Origin: a virus | IMG/VR virus record: IMGVR_UViG_3300012931_000017 | Coordinates: 1 to 33,414 of that record | Reading direction: 5' to 3' (one strand) | Length of the DNA stretch: 33,414 bases | Shown here: piece after piece, positions 1 through 26,086 of the stretch | Layout: every line of letters starts with the position of its first letter | Position numbering within the stretch: position 1 is the first letter of the stretch | Program-made: the position numbers and the translations under genes | Notes under the pieces: generated by a model | Told to the model about the DNA's origin: nothing | Database searches by the model: none | What the model saw: only the letters and a program-made list of their open reading frames with translations

Positions 1-1964
1 ACCGATACATTACCTGATCCGTTATCATAGATTGAGCCAGAACCAATTAAAGTTGTATTAGTAAATCTTGCTGAATAATTAGTGGTTCCACTCCCACCAA
101 TAGCACTACCAGCAATATCTTTTACATAATTATAAGCAGTTTCACCTAAATGATAATAAGGACTAACACCGTATAGATTACTTAATAAACTATGATCAGA
201 TATTCCAGAAGAGTTAAATTGAGTTGTAAAAGCTGAGTCTATCTTAGTCGCGGTTGTAGCATTATACTGAACTATTATTCGTCCTACTAATATACAATGT
301 CCTGTAATAACTACAGGTAAATTACTTGGAATTGAAGCATTAAGTGCATCAGAATATTGATTATAATCAGAGGTTGATAAGACATAATAAATACGTTTAA
401 CAGCTCCAACAGTTCTATACATGAATCTAACTAAATATTTATTATTAGTTGAAGTAACTAAGTCTGTACCATCATCATATTGTGTATTATTATATTGAGT
501 ATTTTGAGTATAGGTCCAAGTTCCACTTGAATGATAGAATAAAAACATAGAATCGGTTAAACTATTAAATGATGGTAAGGAATTAGCTGTAGTACCTACA
601 TAAACTATGCCACTAGTTAAAGTTACATAACGAGTAGCAGATTCTCCAATAGCTAAACCACCATCAATAGATAAACGATACGGAGTAGTTTGTAATATAG
701 AAGCGTCTATCTTATTACTTAATGATATCCCATTAGATCCAAAAGGAGTATATCTAATTATATTACCTAATCTCCAAATTGCAGCTATACCAACAATATT
801 ACTATGATTAATTAAAGACTTATCACTAATTAATACATAAGAAGCAATTCCTAAACTATATTGAATAGTTAGATATTGTTGAGACCAATCAGAAGGAGTA
901 ATAGTTGCTTCAGCTACAGAAAAACTAGAAATTTCATTTTCCCAATTTGCATTATCTCTTAGATTACAAGTTGTAGAAGCTACAGTAAATGAACCATCAC
1001 CATTATCAGTAATAGTTGGAAAAGTTATTACATTAATTCCAGTACTTAAATCGGTATGAGTTGCATAAATATTAGTATCAATACTTGCTGAACCTGTAGT
1101 TAATTTAACAAATCCACTAATACTTGTTGATAAACTCGATAAACTATTTAAAATAGAATTATATTGTTGAGCACCAACATCACTATAAGATAATCCATGA
1201 GCTGCAAAACCAAAAGTAGTTGCACTTAAAGCTTTTAAGAAATGACCAGTAGTTAAATCAGAAACTGTATGATAACTAGAAACTAATTCATGAGGAACTG
1301 TAGAAACTCCAGTTATTATTTCGTCTAAATTTCTATAATTTACAATTCCAGAATCTTCTTGAACTAAAACTCTTGTAGGATTTGATGTTAAATGAGACAA
1401 GCCATCAATTCTTAATCCACCAGCTATTTGTAAACCTTTACTTGTAATAACTGTACTTAAAGTTTCTCTAATAGATGAATTGCCTAATTTTCCTTCTAAA
1501 CCATTTGTAAATTTAACTATATAATCATTTAAACCTAACCCATGATTATGATCAACAACATCTACAGCGGTTATTGGCGTTGCTGAAGTTTCAGTACCAC
1601 CATAGGTAGTAGATGAAATATTTTGATTAACCCAAGATCCATTAATATAAACTAAAGCTTGACCATTTGTAGGATTTTCTATTTCAACATCGGTTAAATC
1701 GTTCAAACTAAGATTATCATTTAAATGATTTATTATTTCTTTAGAGAATGATTTAACTATAGCTTCTAATCCAGTTACTTTAGTTTTCTCATAAGTCATG
1801 ATTCGGCTATCATCAACATTTAGTGATAACTGATCAACTTGAGATAATTTTTCAGGAGAGAATGGATTAATAACTACTTTATTAGAAGATGAAATAGTTT
1901 GATTCATCGTAACTTTTTCTAACTCTAATAAAATATCAGATTCTAATAATGAGCTATTTAACAT
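1..1964 (-). CDS. Tail fiber-like structural protein, 5'-partial in window (C-terminus lies beyond position 1)
   Basis: Open minus-strand frame from ATG at 1962-1964 (MLNSSLLESDILLELEKV...) to the window edge, with AGGAAA ~10 nt upstream of the ATG. It is >650 aa and S/T/G/N-rich (...TITPSDWSQQYLTIQYSLGIASYVLISDK...GSGTTNYSARFTNTTLIGSGS...). It sits directly downstream of the gp5-like spike gene. It is absent from the ORF track only because it runs off the edge. Confidence 0.6.
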   Translation of the reverse strand, partial: MLNSSLLESDILLELEKVTMNQTISSSNKVVINPFSPEKLSQVDQLSLNVDDSRIMTYEKTKVTGLEAIVKSFSKEIINHLNDNLSLNDLTDVEIENPTNGQALVYINGSWVNQNISSTTYGGTETSATPITAVDVVDHNHGLGLNDYIVKFTNGLEGKLGNSSIRETLSTVITSKGLQIAGGLRIDGLSHLTSNPTRVLVQEDSGIVNYRNLDEIITGVSTVPHELVSSYHTVSDLTTGHFLKALSATTFGFAAHGLSYSDVGAQQYNSILNSLSSLSTSISGFVKLTTGSASIDTNIYATHTDLSTGINVITFPTITDNGDGSFTVASTTCNLRDNANWENEISSFSVAEATITPSDWSQQYLTIQYSLGIASYVLISDKSLINHSNIVGIAAIWRLGNIIRYTPFGSNGISLSNKIDASILQTTPYRLSIDGGLAIGESATRYVTLTSGIVYVGTTANSLPSFNSLTDSMFLFYHSSGTWTYTQNTQYNNTQYDDGTDLVTSTNNKYLVRFMYRTVGAVKRIYYVLSTSDYNQYSDALNASIPSNLPVVITGHCILVGRIIVQYNATTATKIDSAFTTQFNSSGISDHSLLSNLYGVSPYYHLGETAYNYVKDIAGSAIGGSGTTNYSARFTNTTLIGSGSIYDNGSGNVS

Positions 1965-1980
1965 TTATAAAATTTCCTAT

Positions 1981-2748
1981 TTAAACACAAATATTACCAG
2001 CATGAGGGAGACCAGTTAATGGATCAACAGGAATAGAATTCATTGGTCCAACATTAGAAGGAACTACAAGAGTTCCCGTTAATTCTAATGTAACAGAATG
2101 ATCTATTTTTACATAACCACCACTAATAGTAATATTTCCATCTTTTTCAATCTTTATTAAACCTATATTATTATTTTTTATTGTATGGTCGCCTATAACT
2201 GTATGAACTTCATCTTTTTTAACTAAAGTATTTTCATTACCATTAATTAATATATTAGTATCACCATCTTTATTTATCTCAAGATTATTTCCAGAATTAT
2301 GATGAAATATAAACTTTTTAGTTTTTCTATTCATTGTTAGATAATCACCTTCATCAGTTTGGAAGATAACCATAGTATCTGGATAATTTTCTAATCTCAA
2401 ACTAGATAATTTATTTTTATCATTAACTTTGGTTGAATAATGAGGAAAGTATATATCATCATTATCAAAGTAAACTTTTACTATTGTATTAATTGGAGGA
2501 ACTACAAATGAACCAATAGTAGAACCTATAAAATTAAAATCTGGTTGAGCCCACGGAAGATCATTATTTGGTATCTTATCAAATATACCAAAAACCTTAA
2601 TTTGACATCTTCCTTCTTTTAATGGATCAATATTATTAATAACTTTTCCTACATAACTTTTATTATAAATATCACCATCAAAACGATCAATAACCGCTTC
2701 AAGTAATGAGCTTATATCTTGAGAAAGGAAATCTCTCATGTTTTCCAT
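1981..2748 (-). CDS. Baseplate central spike protein (T4 gp5-like N-terminal OB-fold plus C-terminal beta-helix; no lysozyme domain)
   Basis: Track ORF is 1981..2832. The motif YVGKVINNIDPLKEGRCQIKVFGIFDKIPNNDLPWAQP matches the gp5/VgrG OB-fold signature (T4 gp5 FVGVVEDVMDPQKSGRVRVRV...LPWA). The C-terminal repetitive segment IGDHTIKNNNIGLIKIEKDGNITISGGYVKIDHSVTLELTG looks like a beta-helix. My preferred start is the ATG at ~2746-2748 (MENMRDF...). The extension to 2832 overlaps the upstream gene by 74 nt. Confidence 0.65.
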   Translation of the reverse strand: MENMRDFLSQDISSLLEAVIDRFDGDIYNKSYVGKVINNIDPLKEGRCQIKVFGIFDKIPNNDLPWAQPDFNFIGSTIGSFVVPPINTIVKVYFDNDDIYFPHYSTKVNDKNKLSSLRLENYPDTMVIFQTDEGDYLTMNRKTKKFIFHHNSGNNLEINKDGDTNILINGNENTLVKKDEVHTVIGDHTIKNNNIGLIKIEKDGNITISGGYVKIDHSVTLELTGTLVVPSNVGPMNSIPVDPLTGLPHAGNICV

Positions 2749-2758
2749 TATGCACCAT

Positions 2759-3910
2759 TTAAACTGATTGTGAACGGTTATATCCATTTCTATGAATGGA
2801 TATATGTTTTTTATAAAGAGATGAATTACCAAAGCTATGAGTTATACCAGAAACTATATATTCACCAGACTGAACTTCATCTAATTCAACTCTTTGTAAT
2901 GAATTAACCATTAATATTATAGTATCAAACAATTTAACTGAACTAAGTGAATTTATATTTAAAACTGTTGAAATATTAAAAATATTTTTAAAATATACAT
3001 TTTGTAGTTTAGCTTTAAAATAATCAGCAAATACATTATTTGTAAAAATAGGAAATGTTTTTACATTTACAGTTTTATCATAAGATTTGTTACTAATTTC
3101 TGTTAATGGATGATAATCTTTATTTACGTTAATTTCATTCAATTTTGAAGAATCATAATAATTACCAGTTAAACCATAACCATAATTCATATTAAAATGT
3201 TTAGTATAATTAGCTGTATTAAAAGAATTATACCAAATAGTTTTCTTATCTTCTTTATTAGTAAACTCATATTTATTAAAATTCTCAAGACTATAAATAG
3301 CTTTGGTTGAATAAGATTTATTAATTTCTGATTTTAATGATGTATAATTTAAGTTTCCGAAAATATCAGCATAGCAAAATATAACATCATCACTACAATA
3401 AGCTCGTTCAACTATATGTTTAATAAACTGAAAATTTGACTGATTAATTTGTAACCAAGTCATCATATCAGAAGTATTAAGATTAAGATTTTTATTAAAT
3501 TTTAATTTTAATTCATTACTTATCTGACTAATAACTTGAGAAGAATTCATATTTTTAAAACTTCTAGTTTTAGTAAAATATAAATCATTAGTTTGTAAAA
3601 TTCCGGATAATGTTATTAAAGAAGCTTTATTTCCTTCTATATTATCAATAACTTTATTAATTATTTCAAACTGTGCATGAAATATATGTTCATCTTCAGG
3701 ATTTACACCCACTTCAATATCTAAAATCGAGTTATCAAGAATAGGAAAGTTTTCAGTTAAATAACCATCATCTAATATAGAAATTTCAATTCTTGGTAAT
3801 ATATCAAAAATCCATTCTCTTATTACACAATTAGAAATATTCTTTGGAATTAGTGGGTGATCATCAATAGAAAGTTTACAATAATAGTTCTGAAAAAATG
3901 AATAATCCAC
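2759..3910 (-). CDS. Baseplate hub protein (gp27-like by size and position); GTG start
   Basis: 383-aa ORF immediately upstream of the gp5-like gene. Its size matches T4 gp27 (391 aa). The start codon is GTG (plus-strand 'cac' at 3908-3910), overlapping the upstream TAG as TAGTG. No diagnostic motif was recognised. The call rests on synteny and length. Confidence 0.4.
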   Translation of the reverse strand: MDYSFFQNYYCKLSIDDHPLIPKNISNCVIREWIFDILPRIEISILDDGYLTENFPILDNSILDIEVGVNPEDEHIFHAQFEIINKVIDNIEGNKASLITLSGILQTNDLYFTKTRSFKNMNSSQVISQISNELKLKFNKNLNLNTSDMMTWLQINQSNFQFIKHIVERAYCSDDVIFCYADIFGNLNYTSLKSEINKSYSTKAIYSLENFNKYEFTNKEDKKTIWYNSFNTANYTKHFNMNYGYGLTGNYYDSSKLNEINVNKDYHPLTEISNKSYDKTVNVKTFPIFTNNVFADYFKAKLQNVYFKNIFNISTVLNINSLSSVKLFDTIILMVNSLQRVELDEVQSGEYIVSGITHSFGNSSLYKKHISIHRNGYNRSQSV

Positions 3911-7099: not shown

Positions 7100-7858
7100 T
7101 CAGTTAGACTTATATTTGGGAAGAAAGAATTCTTCTCGAAACGTAACCCCTTTTAAGGTAGTTCCTCCACATTTAGGACATTCAACTAATAATTCAGACT
7201 TAATTCCAAAATTCCATTCTTCCATTTTACTCAATATATAACAATAGTTTTCCGGATTCTGATTAATTAAATATTCATATTTTTCAATTAGTTCAAGTTC
7301 CTTTCCATTTATCTTATCTATTGATACAGCCATTCCTGCAATTTCATCATCCAAATCTTTGTAAATAGGCAAGTAAGCTGTTTTAAAAGATTTCAATCTC
7401 TTCTCATCTATAATTTTTGGAAAATGAAAAACTATTTCATCTTCATTTTTAGTCTTAAATGTAAGGTTGGCTAACGAAAAACTATCCTTCAAATATTGAA
7501 CTTGTAAATTTGATAATTTAAAATCAAATGAAACTTCTTCTTTGCAATTTGAACAAACAAAATCTTGAGAATATCCTGATTCTCTATAAGTATTAGCTCT
7601 TAACCAAAAGATTAAAAATAGTTTGTCAGATGATAAAATATCTTCAATCTTGATTCCACGTATACATTTCTTTAAAATATCTAAAATTATAGAGTCTGCA
7701 TTTTCTTCAGTCATTGAAGATAGTCTTTTAACTTCTAATAATTTTAATGGTCTTCCTTCAATTTTAACATTACCATATAGTTTACATTTACTTGGAAAAT
7801 CAGTTATCTCATAATAAATTGGTTCAGTATCACTCATTTTTCTTAAACTCCATTTCAA
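7100..7858 (-). CDS. Hypothetical protein with CxxC...CxxC zinc-ribbon (possible baseplate hub/assembly factor)
   Basis: 252 aa. It has CSNC...CPKCGG cysteine pairs. It sits between the tube-like genes and the tape-measure gene. No family was recognised. Confidence 0.3.
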   Translation of the reverse strand: MKWSLRKMSDTEPIYYEITDFPSKCKLYGNVKIEGRPLKLLEVKRLSSMTEENADSIILDILKKCIRGIKIEDILSSDKLFLIFWLRANTYRESGYSQDFVCSNCKEEVSFDFKLSNLQVQYLKDSFSLANLTFKTKNEDEIVFHFPKIIDEKRLKSFKTAYLPIYKDLDDEIAGMAVSIDKINGKELELIEKYEYLINQNPENYCYILSKMEEWNFGIKSELLVECPKCGGTTLKGVTFREEFFLPKYKSN

Positions 7859-8922
7859 ACAGGTTTATTCAATACATTCTTCCTAAATTGTTTTTTATCT
7901 ACAGGTTTCTTTTCCACTGGTTTAGCCTGTTTAACTTTATTCAAATTAGTTTTATTAGGATTCTTCATTACTGGCTTCTTAACTACAGGCTTATTTTCTA
8001 TTGGTTTAGCAACGGGTTTCTTAATTTCTGGTTTAACTATTTTCTTTTTTTCCTCTTCCTGTTGCTTCTTTATTATAGGTCTTCTATCAATAGTTTGATA
8101 TTTAGGAAGTTTATGAACTACAGGTTCTGCTTTTTTAGTTGGTGTATTATGCTTTAAAGCATTCTTTTTTGCTTGTTCAGCTCTATCTTGATATAATTTA
8201 GTCTTCGCTGTTGGTTGATATTTTCTTTCAAATTCAGCCGCTCCAGCTTTAGTTCTTTGTTCTAAATCATTATGGGTTTTACCTTTCTTCATTTTCTCTT
8301 CTCTAGCTTTCCTTAATTTTTCCATAGAAGCATGACGTTCTTTAGCCATCTCATGACGCTCTTGAGCTCTTTGTTCTACACTAGCAGCTTTTTTAGCTCT
8401 TTCTGCAGCTTTCTCTTCTCTAGCTTTCCTTAATTTTTCCATAGAAGCATGACGTTCTTTAGCCATCTCATGACGCTCTTGAGCTCTTTGTTCTACACTA
8501 GCAGCTTTTTTAGCTCTTTCTGCAGCTTTCTGTGAATCTGATTTTTCTTTTTCATCACCACGCCAAGTTTTTATGGCTGTTTTTTGTTTTCTTTCTCTTT
8601 CTTTGGATAATTTAGACTTAAAACGTTCATCTTCTGAAGAACTTCTTTTTTGTTTTAATTCTGCTTGTTTAGCTTCACGAGCCTTTTCTGAAGCAGTTCT
8701 TCTTTGATCTCGCTCTAATTTAGCTTGATCTCTTTTTTTATCCATTTCTGTTTGACGAGCTTTTCTATCACTTTCTTTTGAAGCTCTAAGTTTATCCATC
8801 TGCTTTTGACGTTTAAGTCTATCTTTTCTATTTGAACTATACCATTTTCTATTTTGGTCTCTTTTTGTAGCTCTCATAAAATTAGATAGAATTCCAGCCT
8901 TTTCGATTATTATATCACCCAT
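7855..8922 (-). CDS. Highly charged K/E/R-rich repeat protein carrying an internal 39-aa tandem duplication and a C-terminal KPV-type low-complexity tail
   Basis: 355 aa. SMEKLRKAREEKAAERAKKAASVEQRAQERHEMAKERHA occurs twice in a row. The C-terminus is ...KPVAKPIENKPVVKKPVMKNPNK.... Function is unknown. It could be a tail-assembly chaperone or tape-measure-associated protein. Confidence 0.5.
   Translation of the reverse strand: MGDIIIEKAGILSNFMRATKRDQNRKWYSSNRKDRLKRQKQMDKLRASKESDRKARQTEMDKKRDQAKLERDQRRTASEKAREAKQAELKQKRSSSEDERFKSKLSKERERKQKTAIKTWRGDEKEKSDSQKAAERAKKAASVEQRAQERHEMAKERHASMEKLRKAREEKAAERAKKAASVEQRAQERHEMAKERHASMEKLRKAREEKMKKGKTHNDLEQRTKAGAAEFERKYQPTAKTKLYQDRAEQAKKNALKHNTPTKKAEPVVHKLPKYQTIDRRPIIKKQQEEEKKKIVKPEIKKPVAKPIENKPVVKKPVMKNPNKTNLNKVKQAKPVEKKPVDKKQFRKNVLNKPV
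8293..8526. repeat. Perfect 2 x 117-bp direct tandem duplication inside CDS 7855..8922 (in frame, 39 codons per unit)
   Basis: The block ...ttctcttctctagctttccttaatttttccatagaagcatgacgttctttagccatctcatgacgctcttgagctctttgttctacactagcagcttttttagctctttctgcagcttt occurs twice back to back (~8293-8409 and ~8410-8526). No mismatch was visible. Confidence 0.85.
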
Positions 8923-12810: not shown

Positions 12811-13908
12811 CTAGTCGTCATCAAAGTTAGGATCATCAGCATCTTGATCAGTAAAAACTATAGGAGCATCTGAGTCCCATCTATCATCTATCTTAAACTT
12901 ATCTTCTATTGACTTAATTCCTACATTCTTTCCATCAAATAGTTCAGTTGTTACAAAATATAAAGCCCATAATAAGCTAGTCACAGAATCATCATGTGCA
13001 TATTCTGGAGATTGATATATATTAGGCTTAATTTCTTCATATAAACTAAGTTCATATATAGTTTGTCTATCAACTAACTTTAACCAATGACTTTCTAAAT
13101 ACCTCTTTAATAATAAATTGGCATTTAGTTTAGTCTTCTTTGTAGCCCTTATACCTAGTCCCTTAGCATCACAATTAATTATAGCATCACATTCATGATC
13201 ATTCCAAATTATATCAGCAACTAGTGACCCTACACCATTATTCTCAATCATCATATTAGCATTATTATAATATTCCGATATAGATACACTAATTTGAGCA
13301 AATTTACTTATTTCTAAAGTATTAGTTCTAAAAACGGCAACCTGTTCAATATCAAGTTCTGAATTTATCTTCAAAATCTGAATAACAGCATAATCATGTC
13401 CAATTCCTTCAGATGAATCTATTCCCATTATATAAAAAGCATTAGGAATCGGATGTTCAAATATTTGAAGTATACCATTCCACTTAGTGTCTATAGGATC
13501 TATAGTTTCTAGTCTCTCCAATACTTCACTATCTATTAATGTATTTGTTGAACCAATAAATTTACAGTTATGATTCAATATATTATTAGCAAAATATCTA
13601 TGAGTGTCTTTTACCTCTAATACATCAAAAACTAATTCCTTTTTTCCAGTTTCTATATTTATTATAGTTTTATAACAGTTCTGGGATTCTAATACTTCTC
13701 CAATATTAAGTTCACAAGCTTCAACTTCTAAATCATCTATTACAAATACATGATGATAAGTTACAGATATGGTTGAATTATCTTCTAAAGTAAATGTTAG
13801 TAAGTCCTGCTCTCCAAGACAAGCTAATCCATCAAAGTCCTTATAGCCTTCATCAGTTTCAATCTGTAGTCCTTCAAATTTTCTGATTTCAATCATATTT
13901 TTATCCAA
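12811..13908 (-). CDS. terL: Terminase large subunit fragment 3: IntC half of split intein 'b' (aa 1-114) fused to the C-terminal nuclease domain extein
   Basis: The N-terminal 114 aa end ...VFDVLEVKDTHRYFANNILNHN|C (intein blocks F/G, terminal HN plus Cys+1). They are paralogous to the IntC half in ORF 16430..17857. The extein ...CKFIGSTNTLIDSEVL...FYIMGIDSSEGIGHDYAVIQIL...YAHDDSVTSLLWALYF is colinear with T4 gp17 ([13 protein letters not shown]...[21 protein letters not shown]...GYHDDLVMSLVIFGW). The track start is TTG. The ATG at M5 (MIEIRKF..., 13894-13896) is more likely. Confidence 0.85.
   Translation of the reverse strand: MDKNMIEIRKFEGLQIETDEGYKDFDGLACLGEQDLLTFTLEDNSTISVTYHHVFVIDDLEVEACELNIGEVLESQNCYKTIINIETGKKELVFDVLEVKDTHRYFANNILNHNCKFIGSTNTLIDSEVLERLETIDPIDTKWNGILQIFEHPIPNAFYIMGIDSSEGIGHDYAVIQILKINSELDIEQVAVFRTNTLEISKFAQISVSISEYYNNANMMIENNGVGSLVADIIWNDHECDAIINCDAKGLGIRATKKTKLNANLLLKRYLESHWLKLVDRQTIYELSLYEEIKPNIYQSPEYAHDDSVTSLLWALYFVTTELFDGKNVGIKSIEDKFKIDDRWDSDAPIVFTDQDADDPNFDDD
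13567..13908 (-). mobile_element. Split intein b, C-terminal half (IntC-b, ~110-114 aa)
   Basis: Residues 1-114 of ORF 12811..13908. The TxxH-like block is STISVTYHHVFVIDD. Block F/G is VFDVLEVKDTHRYFANNILNHN, followed by Cys+1. Confidence 0.8.
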
Positions 13909-14070
13909 ATAAAATCATAAACTTCTCTATCATCAACTGTAGTATGAGCTATTTCATCCTTAGTTTTAATTTATAAAGGTCTATCTTGTCCAAAATATAA
14001 TAAACACTTAAATGCCTTTGTTTAATAAATAACCAAATAAATCCTAACAACCATTCGATAGTAAATTTCA

Positions 14071-14433
14071 TTAGTCTATTTTTTCCTTTTCTATAGTTCC
14101 ATCTTTCTTAACCTCTATATTTAAAAACTCATGATTCTTCTTTAATCTATTTTGTATTTCTTCTTTAGCATCATCAGGAAGTTCCTTCTCATATTTAGCC
14201 TGACAATCATTTACTCCACGTCCACATATCTTGGCTATCTGCTTATCTAACCATTTTACAAAAAATTTCTTCGTAATAGGGTTCCAATACCATGTAGTCT
14301 TCCTATTGTTAGCCCAGTGTATAAATCCCCTATAAATAATAGGAATTATTATCACTAACATCCCATAAAAAGCTTTCGCCCATTCTGAATTAACATACAA
14401 ACCAAAAAAATTAACTATTTCCGTTGAGTCCAT
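14071..14433 (-). CDS. Small membrane protein (one predicted TM helix), unknown function
   Basis: 120 aa. The hydrophobic stretch is AKAFYGMLVIIIPIIY. GAGGA sits 6 nt upstream of the ATG. It lies between the two halves of split intein b. Confidence 0.5.
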   Translation of the reverse strand: MDSTEIVNFFGLYVNSEWAKAFYGMLVIIIPIIYRGFIHWANNRKTTWYWNPITKKFFVKWLDKQIAKICGRGVNDCQAKYEKELPDDAKEEIQNRLKKNHEFLNIEVKKDGTIEKEKID

Positions 14434-14440
14434 ATAATCC

Positions 14441-15007
14441 TCACTTAAATTTAATTATCTCCCGTGAACCATCTTTTGAACTAAATTCGCAAGTCCTTAC
14501 TTCCATCTCCTTACCTTCAAAATATGATGAATCAAATGAAAGGTTTTCTTTTATTCCCTTCTTTATATATGCTATCGTACAATGAGCTATATACTTTGGA
14601 AAATGATTCTCAAAATCTATCCTACGCTTCAATAATGAGTTCAATTCCCGTAACCTTTCAGATTCAATCTCTATCTTCATTACATCACAGTTATCATTCT
14701 CAAAAAAAGAAATCTTCCCGAATCTAACTTTGAAAGGTTCTATTTTTGAAATTATTGGCCTAATCTCCTTGGCTTCTGATGATATTATTCCATATAATAT
14801 AGTGCAGTGAGGATCTAAATCCCTTCCACAATCATCATTTTCTCCCATATATAAGTAGTCATATATTATATGGGAATATCCAAAATCTATTATCTCTTTA
14901 CTTAGTTTATCATCAATGTTAAATTGCAATGATGAATAATTATGACTAATCTCAGTTCTATCCATGATAAATCCTTTCCAAAATCGTTGTTTGAAAATAT
15001 TTATCAT
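14441..15007 (-). CDS. 2H phosphoesterase superfamily protein (LigT / cyclic-nucleotide phosphodiesterase-like; two HxT motifs)
   Basis: Two H-x-T-x motifs are spaced ~75 aa apart: DPHCTILYG and IAHCTIAYI. This is the hallmark of the 2H family. The likely true start is M15 (MDRTEI..., ~14965), which has AAAGGA 9 nt upstream. Confidence 0.6.
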   Translation of the reverse strand: MINIFKQRFWKGFIMDRTEISHNYSSLQFNIDDKLSKEIIDFGYSHIIYDYLYMGENDDCGRDLDPHCTILYGIISSEAKEIRPIISKIEPFKVRFGKISFFENDNCDVMKIEIESERLRELNSLLKRRIDFENHFPKYIAHCTIAYIKKGIKENLSFDSSYFEGKEMEVRTCEFSSKDGSREIIKFK

Positions 15008-15017
15008 TTTAAAACTT

Positions 15018-15218
15018 TTAGTTCTCTACATTATTACATCTATTGCAAATTCCGATAATCTCTTTCTTTGGTTGTTTACATCTACACGTTTCCGTTGAAC
15101 CGCATCTCTTACATTTTAACTTTAAATGATGGTTGGGTTCTGGATACTCCTTCCTTATTTCATCAAAACTCTTATTATTTTCTTCATTATATATTAAATA
15201 ATCTCTAAATTTCATCAT
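15018..15218 (-). CDS. Small zinc-ribbon protein (CxxC-x5-CxC-x10-CxxC)
   Basis: 66 aa: ...CKRCGSTETCRCKQPKKEIIGICNRCNN. GAGAGG sits 5 nt upstream. It overlaps the 3' end of the HNH gene by 14 nt. Confidence 0.45.
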   Translation of the reverse strand: MMKFRDYLIYNEENNKSFDEIRKEYPEPNHHLKLKCKRCGSTETCRCKQPKKEIIGICNRCNNVEN

Positions 15219-16320
15219 GCAACCTCTCTTTTAATAATTTTATAAAATCCTCAGAATTAAGTTTACCTTTTGCACTATTAGTTTGCCTTCCGCAAATAAC
15301 TAAATTATCTATTCCACCAATTATTTTAAAATCTACATTATTTTTAAATCCATAACTTATACTTATTTTGTGATCTATAGTTGGTTGAAATAAATTGTTA
15401 CTTAAATTTATATCAGGATTTATTTTTCTAAATTCTTCATTTAATATCAATTTATCTCTGGTATAATAGTCTAAACCATCCCAGTTCTCAAATAATATTT
15501 TAATATGTTTTCTAGTTTCATTCCAAACTGTAGTATAATAATAATGAATTTCATCTAAATTATCATAAACATACCAATTTTTATTATTAATATTAGTTTC
15601 TCTAACCTTTTCTCTCACCCAGTCTAGTTGCATAACATTATCAACCGAATACCTATTTCTACACGTTATCCTTATAGATTCTGCTATCTTCTCACAAACC
15701 CAATCTAATTTCATATTATGGTCAACGCCATATCTATCAATCAATGTATTAGTTCTATGGTCATTAACTAATCTAATATTCTCTTCAGTCCAGAAAGCCT
15801 TTCTCTTTTCATTTATCTCTTCCTTATTTTCTTCTAAAGCTTTTTCCCTCGCATCCTTAACATGAGGTAATTGCAAAGTTTCCTCTATTCCATACTTTTT
15901 AAAATTAGCTTCCCTTATCCTCTTCTTTCCTATCTCACAACCAGAAAAACTCTTAGTTCCATATTTTAATAAATTAGTTTTTTGAGTCTTCTCTATTACA
16001 GCTCTTTTACTTTCTTCATTTGAAAATAGTTTCTTCTTTATATCACTTAATTTCTTTCTTGATTCCTCTGTTGCCTTTGTACATTTACAACTACAATAAG
16101 GTCTATAACCAACTAAAAATCCTACAAATTTAGTTTCTTTTCCACAAGCTAAACATTTTCCTTCATTCTCTTTTTTATAAAATTTATCATAATATTGCTT
16201 CTCAGTTATATCACCATGATAAACTTTTAAATGACATCTGTAAAAATCACACCACCTATAAAATGTAGTCTCTTTACCACAAATTGAACAAACAAACTTA
16301 ACATTTCTGTCAAATTTCAT
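15205..16320 (-). CDS. Freestanding HNH homing endonuclease with N-terminal Cys-rich DNA-binding module and repeated DNA-binding motifs
   Basis: The C-terminal HNH motif is PTIDHKISISYGFKNN...DNLVICGRQTNSAKGKL. The N-terminal VCSICGKETTFYRWCDFYRCH...EGKCLACGKETKF module is homologous to the N-terminus of ORF 24255..24770. An internal repeat is KLDWVCEKIAESI / QLDWVREKVRETN. AAGGAG precedes the ATG. Confidence 0.75.
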   Translation of the reverse strand: MKFDRNVKFVCSICGKETTFYRWCDFYRCHLKVYHGDITEKQYYDKFYKKENEGKCLACGKETKFVGFLVGYRPYCSCKCTKATEESRKKLSDIKKKLFSNEESKRAVIEKTQKTNLLKYGTKSFSGCEIGKKRIREANFKKYGIEETLQLPHVKDAREKALEENKEEINEKRKAFWTEENIRLVNDHRTNTLIDRYGVDHNMKLDWVCEKIAESIRITCRNRYSVDNVMQLDWVREKVRETNINNKNWYVYDNLDEIHYYYTTVWNETRKHIKILFENWDGLDYYTRDKLILNEEFRKINPDINLSNNLFQPTIDHKISISYGFKNNVDFKIIGGIDNLVICGRQTNSAKGKLNSEDFIKLLKERLHDEI

Positions 16321-16429
16321 ACCTTTACTCCTTTTTTATTTTTATAAATATTGTTATAGAGGTTCTGGAAATTTACTCGCCAGATAGTTTAGATTTACGC
16401 TAATAAATCTAAACTTACCTCACTTTTTA

Positions 16430-17857
16430 TTAATTATTCCAATTCCATAATTCACCGAATGTCAACGTTTTCTTTTCTCCATTCTTATTTATATTTATAC
16501 GAGAAGTTTTTTCAGAACATGCGTATTCCTGATTAAAAAATACAACCCCTCTATCTCTTATTAGATTTTTCTTAAAATTTTCGTCACGATCAGGATGTTC
16601 CCACCAATTTACTTTAACTGGGAAGAATGTATTTTTACCTTTAACTGCATCAATCCAGATATTATAATAATGATTCATACCATTAGGAGTAGAGACTATA
16701 ATAATTTTAGTAGTTTTACCAGAAGAGATAGTAGGCCAAACTGAATCCATAAATTCAGAGGCTATATTAGAAGCTACAAAAGCGAACTCATCTAAAAATA
16801 GACAATTAGAAACTAGTAAACCATTAGCATAAAATCTATTACCATTAGCTACATTAAGTAAATCGTATACATAAGGACTTATGCTTAGATTTTCTGTAGC
16901 GGTAACAGTTTCAAAACCATCTTTAGATTTAATAGAATCACCAACTTTATAAAAATGTCCAAATTGTTTTTCATTATCATTAAAAAACACTTCATGCCTT
17001 CTAGTTAATTCAAGGAATGAATTGTCTGTTGTGATTTTTAGAATATTATTATTTCGTACTTTCTGTTCAGATAGACCATAAAAATTTTGAAATCCATTAG
17101 GAGTTAAGACATCATATTTGGTATTAAGGAATATATTAAACTTCTTTCTTATTTTATCATTAAATAAAAGTCTTAGTTCTTTGATAGTAACATCGGATAC
17201 TTCTTTGGTTAATTTATCTCTAATGGTTACTTTATTATTTTCCGTTAGGCAGTTTATAGAATAACCTCTAATAGCAGAACTAGCTGTTGATGCTGATAAT
17301 ATTCTAGTTCCATTACCTAAAGTTATAGAAGCTTTATTCCACCCACCTTCAACTATACCTGGTTGTAACCAATAAGGTAAATTCTCATAAACCATTTTTA
17401 TTCTATTCATAATTTCAATAGCAGTTTTCTCTTTATTAGCTAAAACAGCTACTGTTTTATGTTCATTAAATATTGCGTAGTGAGTTAAATAAACTGAAGA
17501 AACTGTAGTATTATGTGAGAGTATTCCTGAAGTGTAATATGTATGGTTTTCTGAACCAACCGATAAATCATACATACTTTCTTTATAACCAAGATTCCTT
17601 ACCGATTTAACAGATTCTAATCCAGTCTTGGTTATTATCCTTTGCCCAATTTTCAAATCCTTCGTAAAGACTTCATTGTAAAATTCATCCATTACAATGT
17701 GATCATCGGCACATTGTAATGTATAATTGTCAGTTGATAGTTCCCATACTTCAAATTCTATAGTTTTATTGGTATGAGTTATATCTTCCCATCCAGTATC
17801 AGTCTCTACTTCCCAGTCATCAACTTCAAACGTTTCAATAAACTTATCTGCTATCAT
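16430..17857 (-). CDS. terL: Terminase large subunit fragment 2: IntC-a (aa 1-116), ATPase-domain extein, contiguous mini-intein (aa 203-351), extein with Walker B, then IntN-b (aa 447-475)
   Basis: The extein TTVSSVYLTHYAIFNEHKTVAVLANKEKTAIE...LQPGIVEGGWNKASITLGNG...STASSAIRGYSIN is colinear with T4 gp17 [29 protein letters not shown]...LQPGIVEWNKGSIELDNG...ASSPDAVRGNSFA. The following extein CLFLDEFAFVASN...SSGKTTKIIIVSTPNGMNHYYNIWIDAVKGK matches MIYIDECAFIPNF...SSGRRSKIIITTTPNGLNHFYDIWTAAVEGK. The segments between are intein-like (see intein features). Confidence 0.9.
   Translation of the reverse strand: MIADKFIETFEVDDWEVETDTGWEDITHTNKTIEFEVWELSTDNYTLQCADDHIVMDEFYNEVFTKDLKIGQRIITKTGLESVKSVRNLGYKESMYDLSVGSENHTYYTSGILSHNTTVSSVYLTHYAIFNEHKTVAVLANKEKTAIEIMNRIKMVYENLPYWLQPGIVEGGWNKASITLGNGTRILSASTASSAIRGYSINCLTENNKVTIRDKLTKEVSDVTIKELRLLFNDKIRKKFNIFLNTKYDVLTPNGFQNFYGLSEQKVRNNNILKITTDNSFLELTRRHEVFFNDNEKQFGHFYKVGDSIKSKDGFETVTATENLSISPYVYDLLNVANGNRFYANGLLVSNCLFLDEFAFVASNIASEFMDSVWPTISSGKTTKIIIVSTPNGMNHYYNIWIDAVKGKNTFFPVKVNWWEHPDRDENFKKNLIRDRGVVFFNQEYACSEKTSRININKNGEKKTLTFGELWNWNN
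16433..16519 (-). mobile_element. Split intein b, N-terminal half (IntN-b, 29 aa) ending at the ORF stop
   Basis: ...FNQEYA|CSEKTSRININKNGEKKTLTFGELWNWNN*. The extein FNQEYA plus CKFIGSTNTLIDSEVL (from ORF 12811..13908) aligns without a gap to T4 [22 protein letters not shown]. IntN-b is similar to IntN-a (KIRIRNKNTGKIVELSIGQF vs RININKNGEKKTLTFGELW). The Cys codon aca is at 16517-16519. Confidence 0.75.
16805..17251 (-). mobile_element. Contiguous 149-aa mini-intein (no endonuclease domain) inserted just upstream of the terminase Walker B
   Basis: It interrupts RGYSIN|...|CLFLDEFAF (T4: RGNSFAMIYIDECAF). It starts with Cys (CLTENNKVTIRD...; the tgc codon is at 17249-17251). It contains the T-x-x-H block ELTRRHEVF. 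It ends ...NRFYANGLLVSN followed by Cys+1. The penultimate residue is Ser rather than His. Confidence 0.75.
17510..17857 (-). mobile_element. Split intein a, C-terminal half (IntC-a, 116 aa)
   Basis: MIADKFIETFEVDDWEVETDTGWEDITH...YTLQCADDHIVMDE...MYDLSVGSENHTYYTSGILSHN|T. Block F/G is (D-L-x-V...H-x-Y...GIL-x-HN), followed by Thr+1. That Thr restores the P-loop GK-T. The Asn116 codon is att at 17510-17512, and the Thr codon agt is at 17507-17509. Confidence 0.85.
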
Positions 17858-24847: not shown

Positions 24848-26086
24848 TTAATATCCGGCGATGATCTTCGATAAATTTGAATATTGAACAAGCCTATAAT
24901 ACCGACCTGCCCCAAGTAAGCTATCAGTAACTGCATAACGACTTCTAACACCAATAACAGGAGAAAAGTCTCTATAATCAGTAGCAGTATTCATAGCATT
25001 CATGATATAAGGAGAGAGGATGACACCCGCGTCATTTTGACCTTCGCCTTTATAACCAACTAGAGCATAATCACCAGAAGCATATTGATCACGGAACACT
25101 TTAATAGTAGAATTAATAGTACCGATTTCAGCTACACCTGCTTGAGTAGGATTAACTTTAGGATCATTTCCGCAGAAGTTAGGTCTTGCTGCTTGGAGAG
25201 CAGTAGCCACAGCTGGAGAAACGATAGCAAAGTTACCAGCACCTCTACGAGTAGTAACGGCAATAGTATTAGACTGATGAACGATAGAAGTAACGATAGA
25301 ACTAATCTGTTCTTGAGACCATCGACCATCAACAAAAGAAGTACCAGAAGTTGCGTTAAGATCTAACTGTTTAGCAGCTGCCCCACCAGTACCAGTAACA
25401 GCAGTAGTTTTCAACTTACCGATTATTTCTCTATCCATTTCAGCAATGATTTCATATTGAAGAACTCTTACAATTTCTCTCTGAATATCAATATTTTGCA
25501 TTGCAGAAATATCTTCAGCAGCTTCAAGACTAAAAGATGCTGCTAATTTTCTTGATTTAGCGGTAATAGCTACGCTTTCAAGGATTAATTTAAGCTGAGG
25601 GAAATCCGTACCAATTTTCCAAGCTTCCGCTTCAGATGTCGAAGCACCAGTACCAGCACCAGAGGTCGAATAAGTTGCTGAAGTACCAGAAGTAGAACCT
25701 GAGAAACCAGAATAAATAGGAACCTGATCCCAAGCTGCTTCAGGGCCATTGACACCAGAACTTTCACCATAGATAACACGAAGTACATAAGCTAATCCAA
25801 CTGGAGTATTCATAGCTTGGATACCTACGCAATTTTGAGCAAAGAGAGCCGGAAAGGTTCTTCTCATAAGAGCAAGAGAGATTGGTTTATAGGCAGCACT
25901 AGCACCCAACTCACCAATAGAAGTAGTACTCATACCTTCGTTCATCACTTTAATATTATCTTGAGCTTCCATAAGAATCGCCATATTTTCTTTAAGATCC
26001 TCAGAAAGATTTTCGATAGACATAGAGCCTAACTCAGCTGTATTACTCCATTTAGTAATAAGCTCTTGAATATTTGTTTTTTCCAT
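24848..26086 (-). CDS. Major capsid protein (gp23-like)
   Basis: 412 aa. ...KPISLALMRRTFPALFAQNCVGIQAMNTPVGLAYVLR matches T4 gp23 ...PLVRRVFPELIAHE(I/V)VGVQPM..P.G. GGAGGA sits 9 nt upstream of the ATG (plus 'cctcc' 26096-26100). Confidence 0.85.
   Translation of the reverse strand: MEKTNIQELITKWSNTAELGSMSIENLSEDLKENMAILMEAQDNIKVMNEGMSTTSIGELGASAAYKPISLALMRRTFPALFAQNCVGIQAMNTPVGLAYVLRVIYGESSGVNGPEAAWDQVPIYSGFSGSTSGTSATYSTSGAGTGASTSEAEAWKIGTDFPQLKLILESVAITAKSRKLAASFSLEAAEDISAMQNIDIQREIVRVLQYEIIAEMDREIIGKLKTTAVTGTGGAAAKQLDLNATSGTSFVDGRWSQEQISSIVTSIVHQSNTIAVTTRRGAGNFAIVSPAVATALQAARPNFCGNDPKVNPTQAGVAEIGTINSTIKVFRDQYASGDYALVGYKGEGQNDAGVILSPYIMNAMNTATDYRDFSPVIGVRSRYAVTDSLLGAGRYYRLVQYSNLSKIIAGY

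Follow-up and report, generated by a model that had tools for sequence, protein, structure and literature searches.

A probable class 1 mini-intein without the usual penultimate histidine, directly upstream of the Walker B strand of a T4-type phage terminase

A segment of 149 codons interrupts a phage large terminase (TerL) gene directly before the Walker B strand and ends in Ser-Asn, which raises the question of whether it is a working intein, the relic of one or an insertion of another kind, and how it relates to the two split inteins that the same gene carries. The gene lies in the IMG/VR record IMGVR_UViG_3300012931_000017, of which positions 1 to 33,414, hereafter the window, were analysed. 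We conclude, with a probability of roughly 0.88, that the segment is a genuine, splicing-competent class 1 mini-intein, composed of a single HINT domain and belonging to a family of phage TerL inteins.

Codons read from the DNA place the element at 16805-17251 of the window on the minus strand (447 nt, 149 codons), within an open reading frame (ORF; 16430-17857, minus strand, 475 residues) that stays open through the whole mini-intein. The junctions, marked here and below by a slash, read AIRGYSIN/CLTENNKV...YANGLLVSN/CLFLDEFAF, with Ser148 as the penultimate residue. A preliminary description made from the letters of the window had proposed a contiguous, endonuclease-less mini-intein of 149 residues at exactly these coordinates, a penultimate serine (VSN/C) and an insertion in RGYSIN/CLFLDEFAF just upstream of Walker B; all of this is borne out by the codons, the structural model, the family homology and the alignment to T4 gp17 given below. 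The 475-residue protein (P0001) occurs in identical copies on three public contigs, the longest of 97.8 kb, which makes a one-off assembly artefact unlikely. The features of the element and its junctions are listed here, A1 being an alignment of the mini-intein with 15 contiguous TerL relatives that are 24-43% identical.

16805 to 17251, minus strand: mini-intein assigned to class 1, Cys1 to Ser148-Asn149 (sequence, family homology, AlphaFold2 model).
17252 to 17269, minus strand: N-extein RGYSIN, equivalent to T4 gp17 245-RGNSFA-250 (sequence and gp17 alignment).
17249 to 17251, minus strand: Cys1 codon (TGC), N-terminal nucleophile, block A (invariant in A1).
17132 to 17161, minus strand: loop residues 31-40, the split or insertion point of the family (model, split alleles and the break in the L007 allele described below).
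16994 to 17005, minus strand: block B, Thr83-Arg-Arg-His86, a TxxH motif (codons and A1).
16862 to 16864, minus strand: Asp130 codon (GAT), block F position 4 (invariant in A1).
16805 to 16810, minus strand: Ser148-Asn149, block G, with the Asn149 codon AAT at 16807-16805 (Asn invariant; VSN ending also in the closest same-site alleles).
16787 to 16804, minus strand: Cys+1 (codon TGT at 16804-16802) and Walker B strand CLFLDE, equivalent to T4 gp17 251-MIYIDE-256 (gapless alignment of the spliced product to 3ezk_A).

The host gene is, judging from its sequence, a T4-type (gp17-like) TerL encoded on the minus strand in three pieces, which contain the N-terminal (IntN) and C-terminal (IntC) fragments of the two split inteins, both split atypically with short N-fragments.

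18952 to 19341, minus strand: TerL piece 1, N-extein up to the Walker A motif CPRQAGK, then a 35-residue IntN (CINYWGK...).
16430 to 17857, minus strand: TerL piece 2, comprising the IntC of split intein 1 (17510-17857, 116 residues, ending ...GILSHN/TT), 86 extein residues, the mini-intein, 95 extein residues, the IntN of split intein 2 (16433-16519, 29 residues, CSEKTS...) and a stop codon.
12811 to 13908, minus strand: TerL piece 3, a 114-residue IntC (...NILNHN), then the C-extein CKFIGSTN... with the nuclease domain.

When the mini-intein and both split inteins are removed and the exteins joined in silico, the resulting 526-residue protein aligns with T4 gp17 (3ezk_A) at E=1.6e-73, gapless at all three junctions, and gains Pfam matches to Terminase_6N (4e-19) and Terminase_6C. 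This, together with the alignment of the fused halves described below, upholds the earlier claim that the gene also carries two split inteins. With gp17 residue numbers counted from the same alignment, the mini-intein falls between A250 and M251, immediately ahead of the Walker B strand. The site is empty in 83 of the 120 best TerL homologues, where RGxSxx is followed directly by four hydrophobic residues and Asp-Glu, and eight of the 120 have a Cys...Asn/Cys insertion of 128-405 residues at exactly this point. Among individual relatives, P0002 (locus L005), which is 62% identical, has an occupied site likewise ending LLVSN/C, P0003, 61% identical and with the same layout from IntC1 to IntN2, has the empty site RGYTIN-SLFLDEFAF, and in P0102 the site is likewise empty, the +1 residue being Cys. 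Occupancy that differs among very close relatives, together with sporadic presence, is the pattern of a mobile element.

Similarity far beyond chance emerged from a phmmer search of the 149 residues alone against 1.84 billion representative proteins, which returned 315 matches at E<=1e-3, 27 of them at E<=1e-10 and the best at 2e-24. All inspected matches are Cys...Asn/Cys/Ser/Thr elements within terminases, and more than half of the best ones are IntC fragments at the N terminus of split TerL genes. Once the collected proteins were re-aligned, every matched domain whose C terminus could be located was found to end in Asn or Gln followed by Cys, Ser or Thr. Among solved structures, the engineered TerL intein CatC (6dsl_B), a consensus of the atypically split AceL/GOS-TerL inteins, gives the best match by sequence (E=4e-7, residues 41-146). 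The preliminary description had named two outcomes that would overturn it, a lack of HINT similarity and an unrelated insertion at this site in terminases without inteins; what we find is clear HINT similarity and intein-less homologues (the 83 above) without any insertion.

The AlphaFold2 model computed from A1 (predicted local distance difference test (pLDDT) score 94.5, predicted template-modelling (TM) score 0.89) consists of a single, mostly β domain with one short helix, and the segment is on this basis predicted to have the HINT fold. A Foldseek search of the PDB with the model gave 48 matches at E<=1e-3, all of them inteins or related HINT-type autoprocessing domains. The VidaL intein ranks first (6vgv, E=6e-9, TM 0.78-0.80), followed by the TFIIB and RadA mini-inteins, PolB16 and gp41-1, and ranks 20-47 include two BIL2 entries, one bacterial intein-like (BIL) domain and two Hedgehog autoprocessing domains. 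No LAGLIDADG, HNH or other nuclease family matches within the mini-intein and the single-domain model leaves no room for one; with some 40 residues between H86 and D130, the element comprises a splicing domain only.

The active site can be described in the nomenclature used for the terminal cysteine, block B, block F position 4 (F:4) and the terminal asparagine of class 1 inteins (PMC4031507). C1, H86 of block B, D130 at F:4 and N149 are invariant in the 16 sequences of A1, and position 83 is Thr or Ser in all 16. These residues are the defining ones of a class 1 active site, and Cys is the nucleophile at both 1 and +1. Class 3 inteins have no N-terminal nucleophile, a Trp-Cys-Thr triplet and Cys at F:4 (PMC4031507). 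Here Cys1 is present and F:4 is Asp130. BIL domains occupy variable regions of non-conserved proteins and usually have no +1 nucleophile, whereas the segment interrupts an essential ATPase at its Walker B strand and is followed by Cys+1.

The element most probably splices in cis by the ordinary class 1 pathway (PMC4031507): an N-S acyl shift at the Asn(-1)-Cys1 bond, helped by Thr83 and His86, would form a thioester, and trans-thioesterification to Cys+1 would follow with Asp130 in a coordinating role. Asn149 would then cyclise without the usual penultimate His or the block F His, and an S-N shift would leave a peptide bond in ...RGYSIN-CLFLDEF.... This cis-splicing, together with trans-splicing of both split inteins, would deliver the 526-residue terminase. 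Because the mini-intein interrupts the core strand bearing the Walker B Asp-Glu, as placed by the gp17 alignment, the ATPase presumably could not assemble before excision, and the same argument has been made for mycobacteriophage TerL inteins (PMC5050341).

This placement could also be read as a conditional switch, in which splicing is gated by the environment, through a Cys1-Cys+1 disulfide or temperature, and assembly of the packaging ATPase is thereby timed post-translationally. Circumstantially, the location in the ATPase core, which must leave the unspliced protein inactive, the Cys at both 1 and +1 and the missing endonuclease domain all agree with such a role, as does the clustering of TerL inteins at ATPase motifs, for which a need to splice before complex formation has been discussed (PMC5050341). 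However, no feature of the sequence specifically indicates regulation, and the intein is dispensable, being absent from close relatives. Its patchy occurrence and a strong site fidelity (the nearest neighbour shares the site for 100 of 168 domains, 33 expected; see below) fit a selfish mobile element, and we regard a switch as unlikely.

Other points weigh against a functional intein more directly. Both residues usually credited with aiding asparagine cyclisation are missing: block F reads GNRF, with Asn138/Arg139 where its His (F:13) would stand, and block G keeps Asn149 but has Ser148 in place of His G:6, so the suggested check of blocks A, B, F and G bore out C1, the TxxH motif, D130 and N149 and failed for the two histidines. 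No compensating residue was identified for them; Arg/Lys at position -10 (R139), considered as a compensator, shows no significant co-variation with the penultimate Ser (Fisher p=0.15), and Arg is the commonest residue at -10 in His-containing inteins too. The curated profiles stay below their cut-offs (Pfam PF14890 14.2 vs 35.8 bits; TIGR01445 13.7 vs 24.5), and the mini-intein is only 43% identical to its closest allele, as against 72-81% for the flanking exteins. Moreover, we infer the splicing activity, and the viability of the phage is assumed, the source being a metagenomic contig. Two further searches were negative: TIGR01443, which models the intein C terminus, recognises the neighbouring split intein by its SHN end but does not match the VSN end of the mini-intein, and a word-indexed protein search with the intein alone gave no match at E<=0.01. 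The profile search recommended in the preliminary description stayed sub-threshold with curated models, and it took the exhaustive phmmer search to find the 315 relatives.

The lost histidines, the low profile scores and a divergence far greater than that of the flanks are also what a decayed, splicing-dead intein would show, that is, a relic failing in C-terminal cleavage within a non-functional terminase copy, for instance in a defective phage. Against this, C1, T83/H86, D130, N149 and C+1 are all intact, the ORF is open, the surrounding 33 kb code for a full set of intact structural genes, and the protein is found on three contigs. Furthermore, about 16 distinct family members, spread over several sites, share the His-less motif, as do the nearest alleles (P0002, P0123, P0139 and P0142), a recurrence that points to selection, and functional inteins without His G:6 are known from the literature (PMC4031507). 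Taken with the survey that follows, these observations make decay a very improbable account.

Among 44 same-site alleles in the collected family the penultimate residue is His in 25, Ser in 13, Lys in three and Thr, Ala and Gln in one each, and the VSN ending is shared by most of the top-scoring relatives (P0002, P0123, P0121, P0139, P0142 and P0166). Across the family, Ser is penultimate in 32 of 269 distinct C-terminal motifs, half of those with Ser (16) lack the block F His as well, and many His-less tails share the motif GN[R/K]F..VSN. The block F His is also missing in 7 of the 16 aligned relatives, and 118 of the 269 tails have no His at -12 to -9. Since same-site alleles and family tails repeat it, the His-less C terminus is probably a conserved variant rather than a lesion, and the penultimate Ser appears to mark a clade. 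The fast Npu DnaE intein likewise ends ...ASN. About 5% of functional inteins have no His at G:6, neither His is universally required, and the block F position has been termed 'less conserved' (PMC4031507). The serine had been described as a variant of a minority of active inteins, which is accurate for inteins at large but does not make it odd at this site, where 13 of 44 alleles have it.

That the insertion is no intein at all, but a BIL cleavage domain or an unrelated accessory domain kept in the mature terminase, would suit the sub-threshold scores against curated intein models and is nevertheless scarcely credible for a segment that interrupts an essential enzyme at its most conserved strand, is bounded by Cys1 and Asn/Cys, is absent without residual sequence from 83 homologues, finds almost exclusively inteins by Foldseek at E<=1e-3 and is homologous to the experimentally splicing Cat/AceL-TerL family (PMC11766414).

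How, then, does this class 1 mini-intein relate to the split inteins beside it? Once the halves of each have been fused in silico, both split inteins align with it along the entire length at about 25% identity (blastp E 6e-15 and 1e-9; lengths 149, 150 and 142 residues). The break points of both map to mini-intein residues ~35-38 and split family members start at residues ~35-48; the model is of low confidence at loop residues 31-40 only (mean pLDDT 74). All three are accordingly members of one family, AceL/GOS-TerL ('Cat'), in two architectures. The preliminary description had called the mini-intein a 'different type' from the split inteins, which is right for architecture and wrong for lineage. 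Identity as low as 25% fits separate acquisitions of the three inteins better than a recent duplication, and the repeated independent invasions that had been suggested are consistent with that figure and with P0003, which lacks only the mini-intein.

A split counterpart at the same site is found in the metagenomic phage contig L007 (ENA ERZ28615217, 794-3681, protein P0139), in which TerL is broken at the exact mini-intein site. Its first piece ends ...IRGMSVN/CVGSDTKITIRSKVTGEIKYVSMRELENILRK, a 290-residue GIY-YIG-like gene lies between the halves (Pfam SegE_GIY-YIG and GIY-YIG score slightly under their cut-offs), and the IntC ends ...NNIIVSN/CIFLDEVAF. The fused L007 intein aligns with the mini-intein over its full length at 37% identity (E=2e-27), with the break at residue 32/33. 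The two alleles share insertion point and VSN ending, but that of L007 is broken after residue 32 and would have to trans-splice. The 44 same-site alleles comprise 28 contiguous and 16 split ones. In a nearest-neighbour analysis of 168 family domains, 100 had a nearest neighbour at the same site (expected 33 +/- 6), a strong site fidelity, whereas 101 had one of the same architecture (expected 84 +/- 8), a weak clustering. Changes between the contiguous and the split state therefore seem to have taken place more than once.

We tentatively propose, as a possibility short of an even chance, that the mini-intein represents the natural unsplit state of a Walker-B-site lineage that has repeatedly been broken at the loop around residues 31-40 by free-standing endonuclease genes and has possibly been re-fused there. 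If so, the origin of atypically split inteins would be recorded wherever one site holds a contiguous intein in one phage and a split one in another, as in the window and L007, and a cut at residue 32/33 should yield a His-independent (VSN) atypical split intein with an IntN of about 32 residues.

The closest relative, L005 (1021-2914 of a Logan ERR14794621 contig, P0002), has the same three-intein layout; its TerL pieces 1 and 2 are 40 nt apart, with no endonuclease gene between the split-intein halves. Identity between the window and L005 is a mosaic, at 72% for IntC1, 81% for the extein before the mini-intein, 43% for the mini-intein, 72% for the extein after it and 34% for IntN2, and this fits either allele replacement or faster drift of the intein under relaxed constraint. 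A scan of IMG/VR with the mini-intein found one locus, L004, a split intein at a different site in a different type of TerL; scans with the split allele P0123, whose contig is 951 nt long, found nothing.

As to mobility, the mini-intein, which lacks an endonuclease of its own, cannot home unaided. Two free-standing genes lie 593 bp and 485 bp from it, respectively:

17844 to 18788, minus strand: endonuclease-like gene between TerL pieces 1 and 2 (weak Pfam matches only).
15205 to 16320, minus strand: homing-endonuclease-like gene downstream of TerL piece 2 (Pfam DUF7487, 1e-11).

The first encodes an N-terminal C2H2 zinc finger and a weakly restriction-endonuclease-like C terminus, a motif of which resembles, by eye, the ORF between the TerL pieces in locus L003; the product of the second also matches PHROG 3339 and 12131, both annotated 'homing endonuclease'. 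Vertical descent could account for the spread of the mini-intein, as could co-conversion with these flanking genes during repair, which is plausible. The halves of split intein 2 are 2.5 kb apart with four ORFs between them (window 12811-19341, minus strand), namely the endonuclease-like gene 15205-16320, a 66-residue ORF, a 2H-phosphoesterase/RNA-ligase-like ORF (14441-15007) and a 120-residue ORF, so that three small ORFs besides the endonuclease-like gene precede piece 3. The four ORFs outnumber the single intervening endonuclease of the classic 'fractured gene' layout.

The collected family shows further arrangements around the same strand. P0031 (residues 210-614) carries a 405-residue insertion at the mini-intein site, with about 260 residues of unrecognisable, low-complexity-looking sequence at the split-point loop and no endonuclease domain by Pfam, and may have arisen by the in-frame joining of pieces that were once separate. 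At least five intein insertion points lie within about nine residues around the Walker B strand of T4-type TerL (RGxS/C, RGxSxx/C, hh/ChDE, hhh/CDE and DE/CAF; for example P0150, P0144, P0229, P0087 and P0185), all with Cys+1 and with occupants from one intein family. In P0009 (residues 202-479), P0020 (204-484) and P0143, two inteins flank the strand with 6-8 extein residues between them, as in ...SHN/CVFVDE/CIGGDS..., and with the intein fragment at the Walker A site this makes three inteins in one ATPase domain. P0175 (at its C terminus), P0225 (172 residues) and P0259 (129 residues) show an intein C terminus followed directly, or after one Cys, by the N-fragment of another split intein (SHN/CITGDNTV..., SHN/C/CVSGDTF... 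and SHN/CVFGDTKI...), which would imply inteins in tandem, separated by one extein residue at most; two of the three seem to be built of intein halves only.

Elsewhere in the window, the structural module contains an endonuclease-like HNH protein of 101 residues (20149-20454) and, at 23713-24770, a zinc-finger ORF (24255-24770) with an adjacent 180-residue ORF (23713-24255), also endonuclease-like; the N terminus of the zinc-finger ORF is, by eye, like that of the 15205-16320 gene. In the tail and baseplate region, a Lys/Glu/Arg-rich ORF of 355 residues (7855-8922, minus strand) contains an internal near-exact duplication of about 33 residues (AAERAKKAASVEQRAQERHEMAKERHASMEKLRKAREEK). Guanine-plus-cytosine (GC) content, at 26% in the mini-intein vs 28.5% in the window, gives no signal of a foreign origin. 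The major capsid protein (24848-26086) is only ~31% identical to its T4-like cyanophage counterparts and 6.6 kb of the window had no nucleotide match by megablast in the phage collection, which therefore does not include the source phage; the DNA seems to come from an uncultured, deep-branching T4-like myovirus with a low-GC host.

For annotation, the mini-intein and many of its relatives lie below the Pfam and TIGRFAM thresholds and are unannotated even in cultured phages, and terminases that carry them can look over-long or fragmented. One lineage that exists as a single chain and also in two halves, broken at a fixed loop with an endonuclease gene between them, offers a natural series for the 'fractured gene' model (Dassa et al. 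2009), and the crowded insertion points in one short β-strand, along with the contiguous and split pair, are material for the study of split-intein origins. To judge from the residues present, the mini-intein is a compact relative of Cat/AceL-TerL that appears to need neither of the usual histidines and could serve as a new scaffold for engineering.

Among known systems, mycobacteriophage TerL inteins cluster at ATPase motifs and have been shown experimentally to splice (Kelley et al. 2016, PMC5050341). TerL1-e of that set resembles the mini-intein in occupying an ATPase motif of a large terminase, Walker B, but it belongs to the Terminase_1 family, the only Terminase_6 site there (f) is in the C-motif, and the intein lineages differ (PMC5050341). 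No description of an intein at the present Terminase_6 site was found in the library of literature searched. The VidaL intein (PDB 6VGV), the top structural match to the model, over 145 residues, is only 21% identical in sequence.

Closer are the single-chain inteins of the same family in two cultured phages, Vibrio phage vB_VmeM-32 (KU160494) and Nitratidesulfovibrio phage SRB7757 (PV062637), which are ~137-141 residues long, interrupt T4-type TerL and are unannotated in their records (L001, coding sequence 1102-3216; L002, 2641-4716). Unlike the mini-intein, they are inserted six residues downstream, past the Walker B Asp-Glu (YVDE/C...SHN/CAF), and retain both the penultimate and the block F His. 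The annotated coding sequence of vB_VmeM-32 appears to open with a split-intein C-fragment (...NIASHN/TTVTA), and the N-terminal TerL piece of that phage may be encoded in another place, perhaps at the opposite end of the linear record.

The closest characterised systems are the atypically split terminase inteins, first noted by Dassa et al. 2009 (PMC2677866), of which AceL-TerL, GOS-TerL and Cat (PDB 6DSL) have been studied biochemically (review PMC11766414). They share with the mini-intein a T4-type TerL host, Cys1 and Cys+1, the class 1 mechanism and a similar size, but are split after ~25-37 residues into two genes and end in SHN, where the mini-intein is a single chain ending in VSN. The C-extein of AceL-TerL, which we take to start with CEFL, resembles the junction TNGIVSHN/CEFLGSSN of P0159, and on this footing these inteins appear to occupy the downstream QE../CxFxGS site, that of the second split intein of the window, rather than the Walker B site. 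Known intein mechanism is unchanged by these findings, and beside these systems the mini-intein is an ordinary added member of a known intein family, with nothing in it to surprise an intein specialist.

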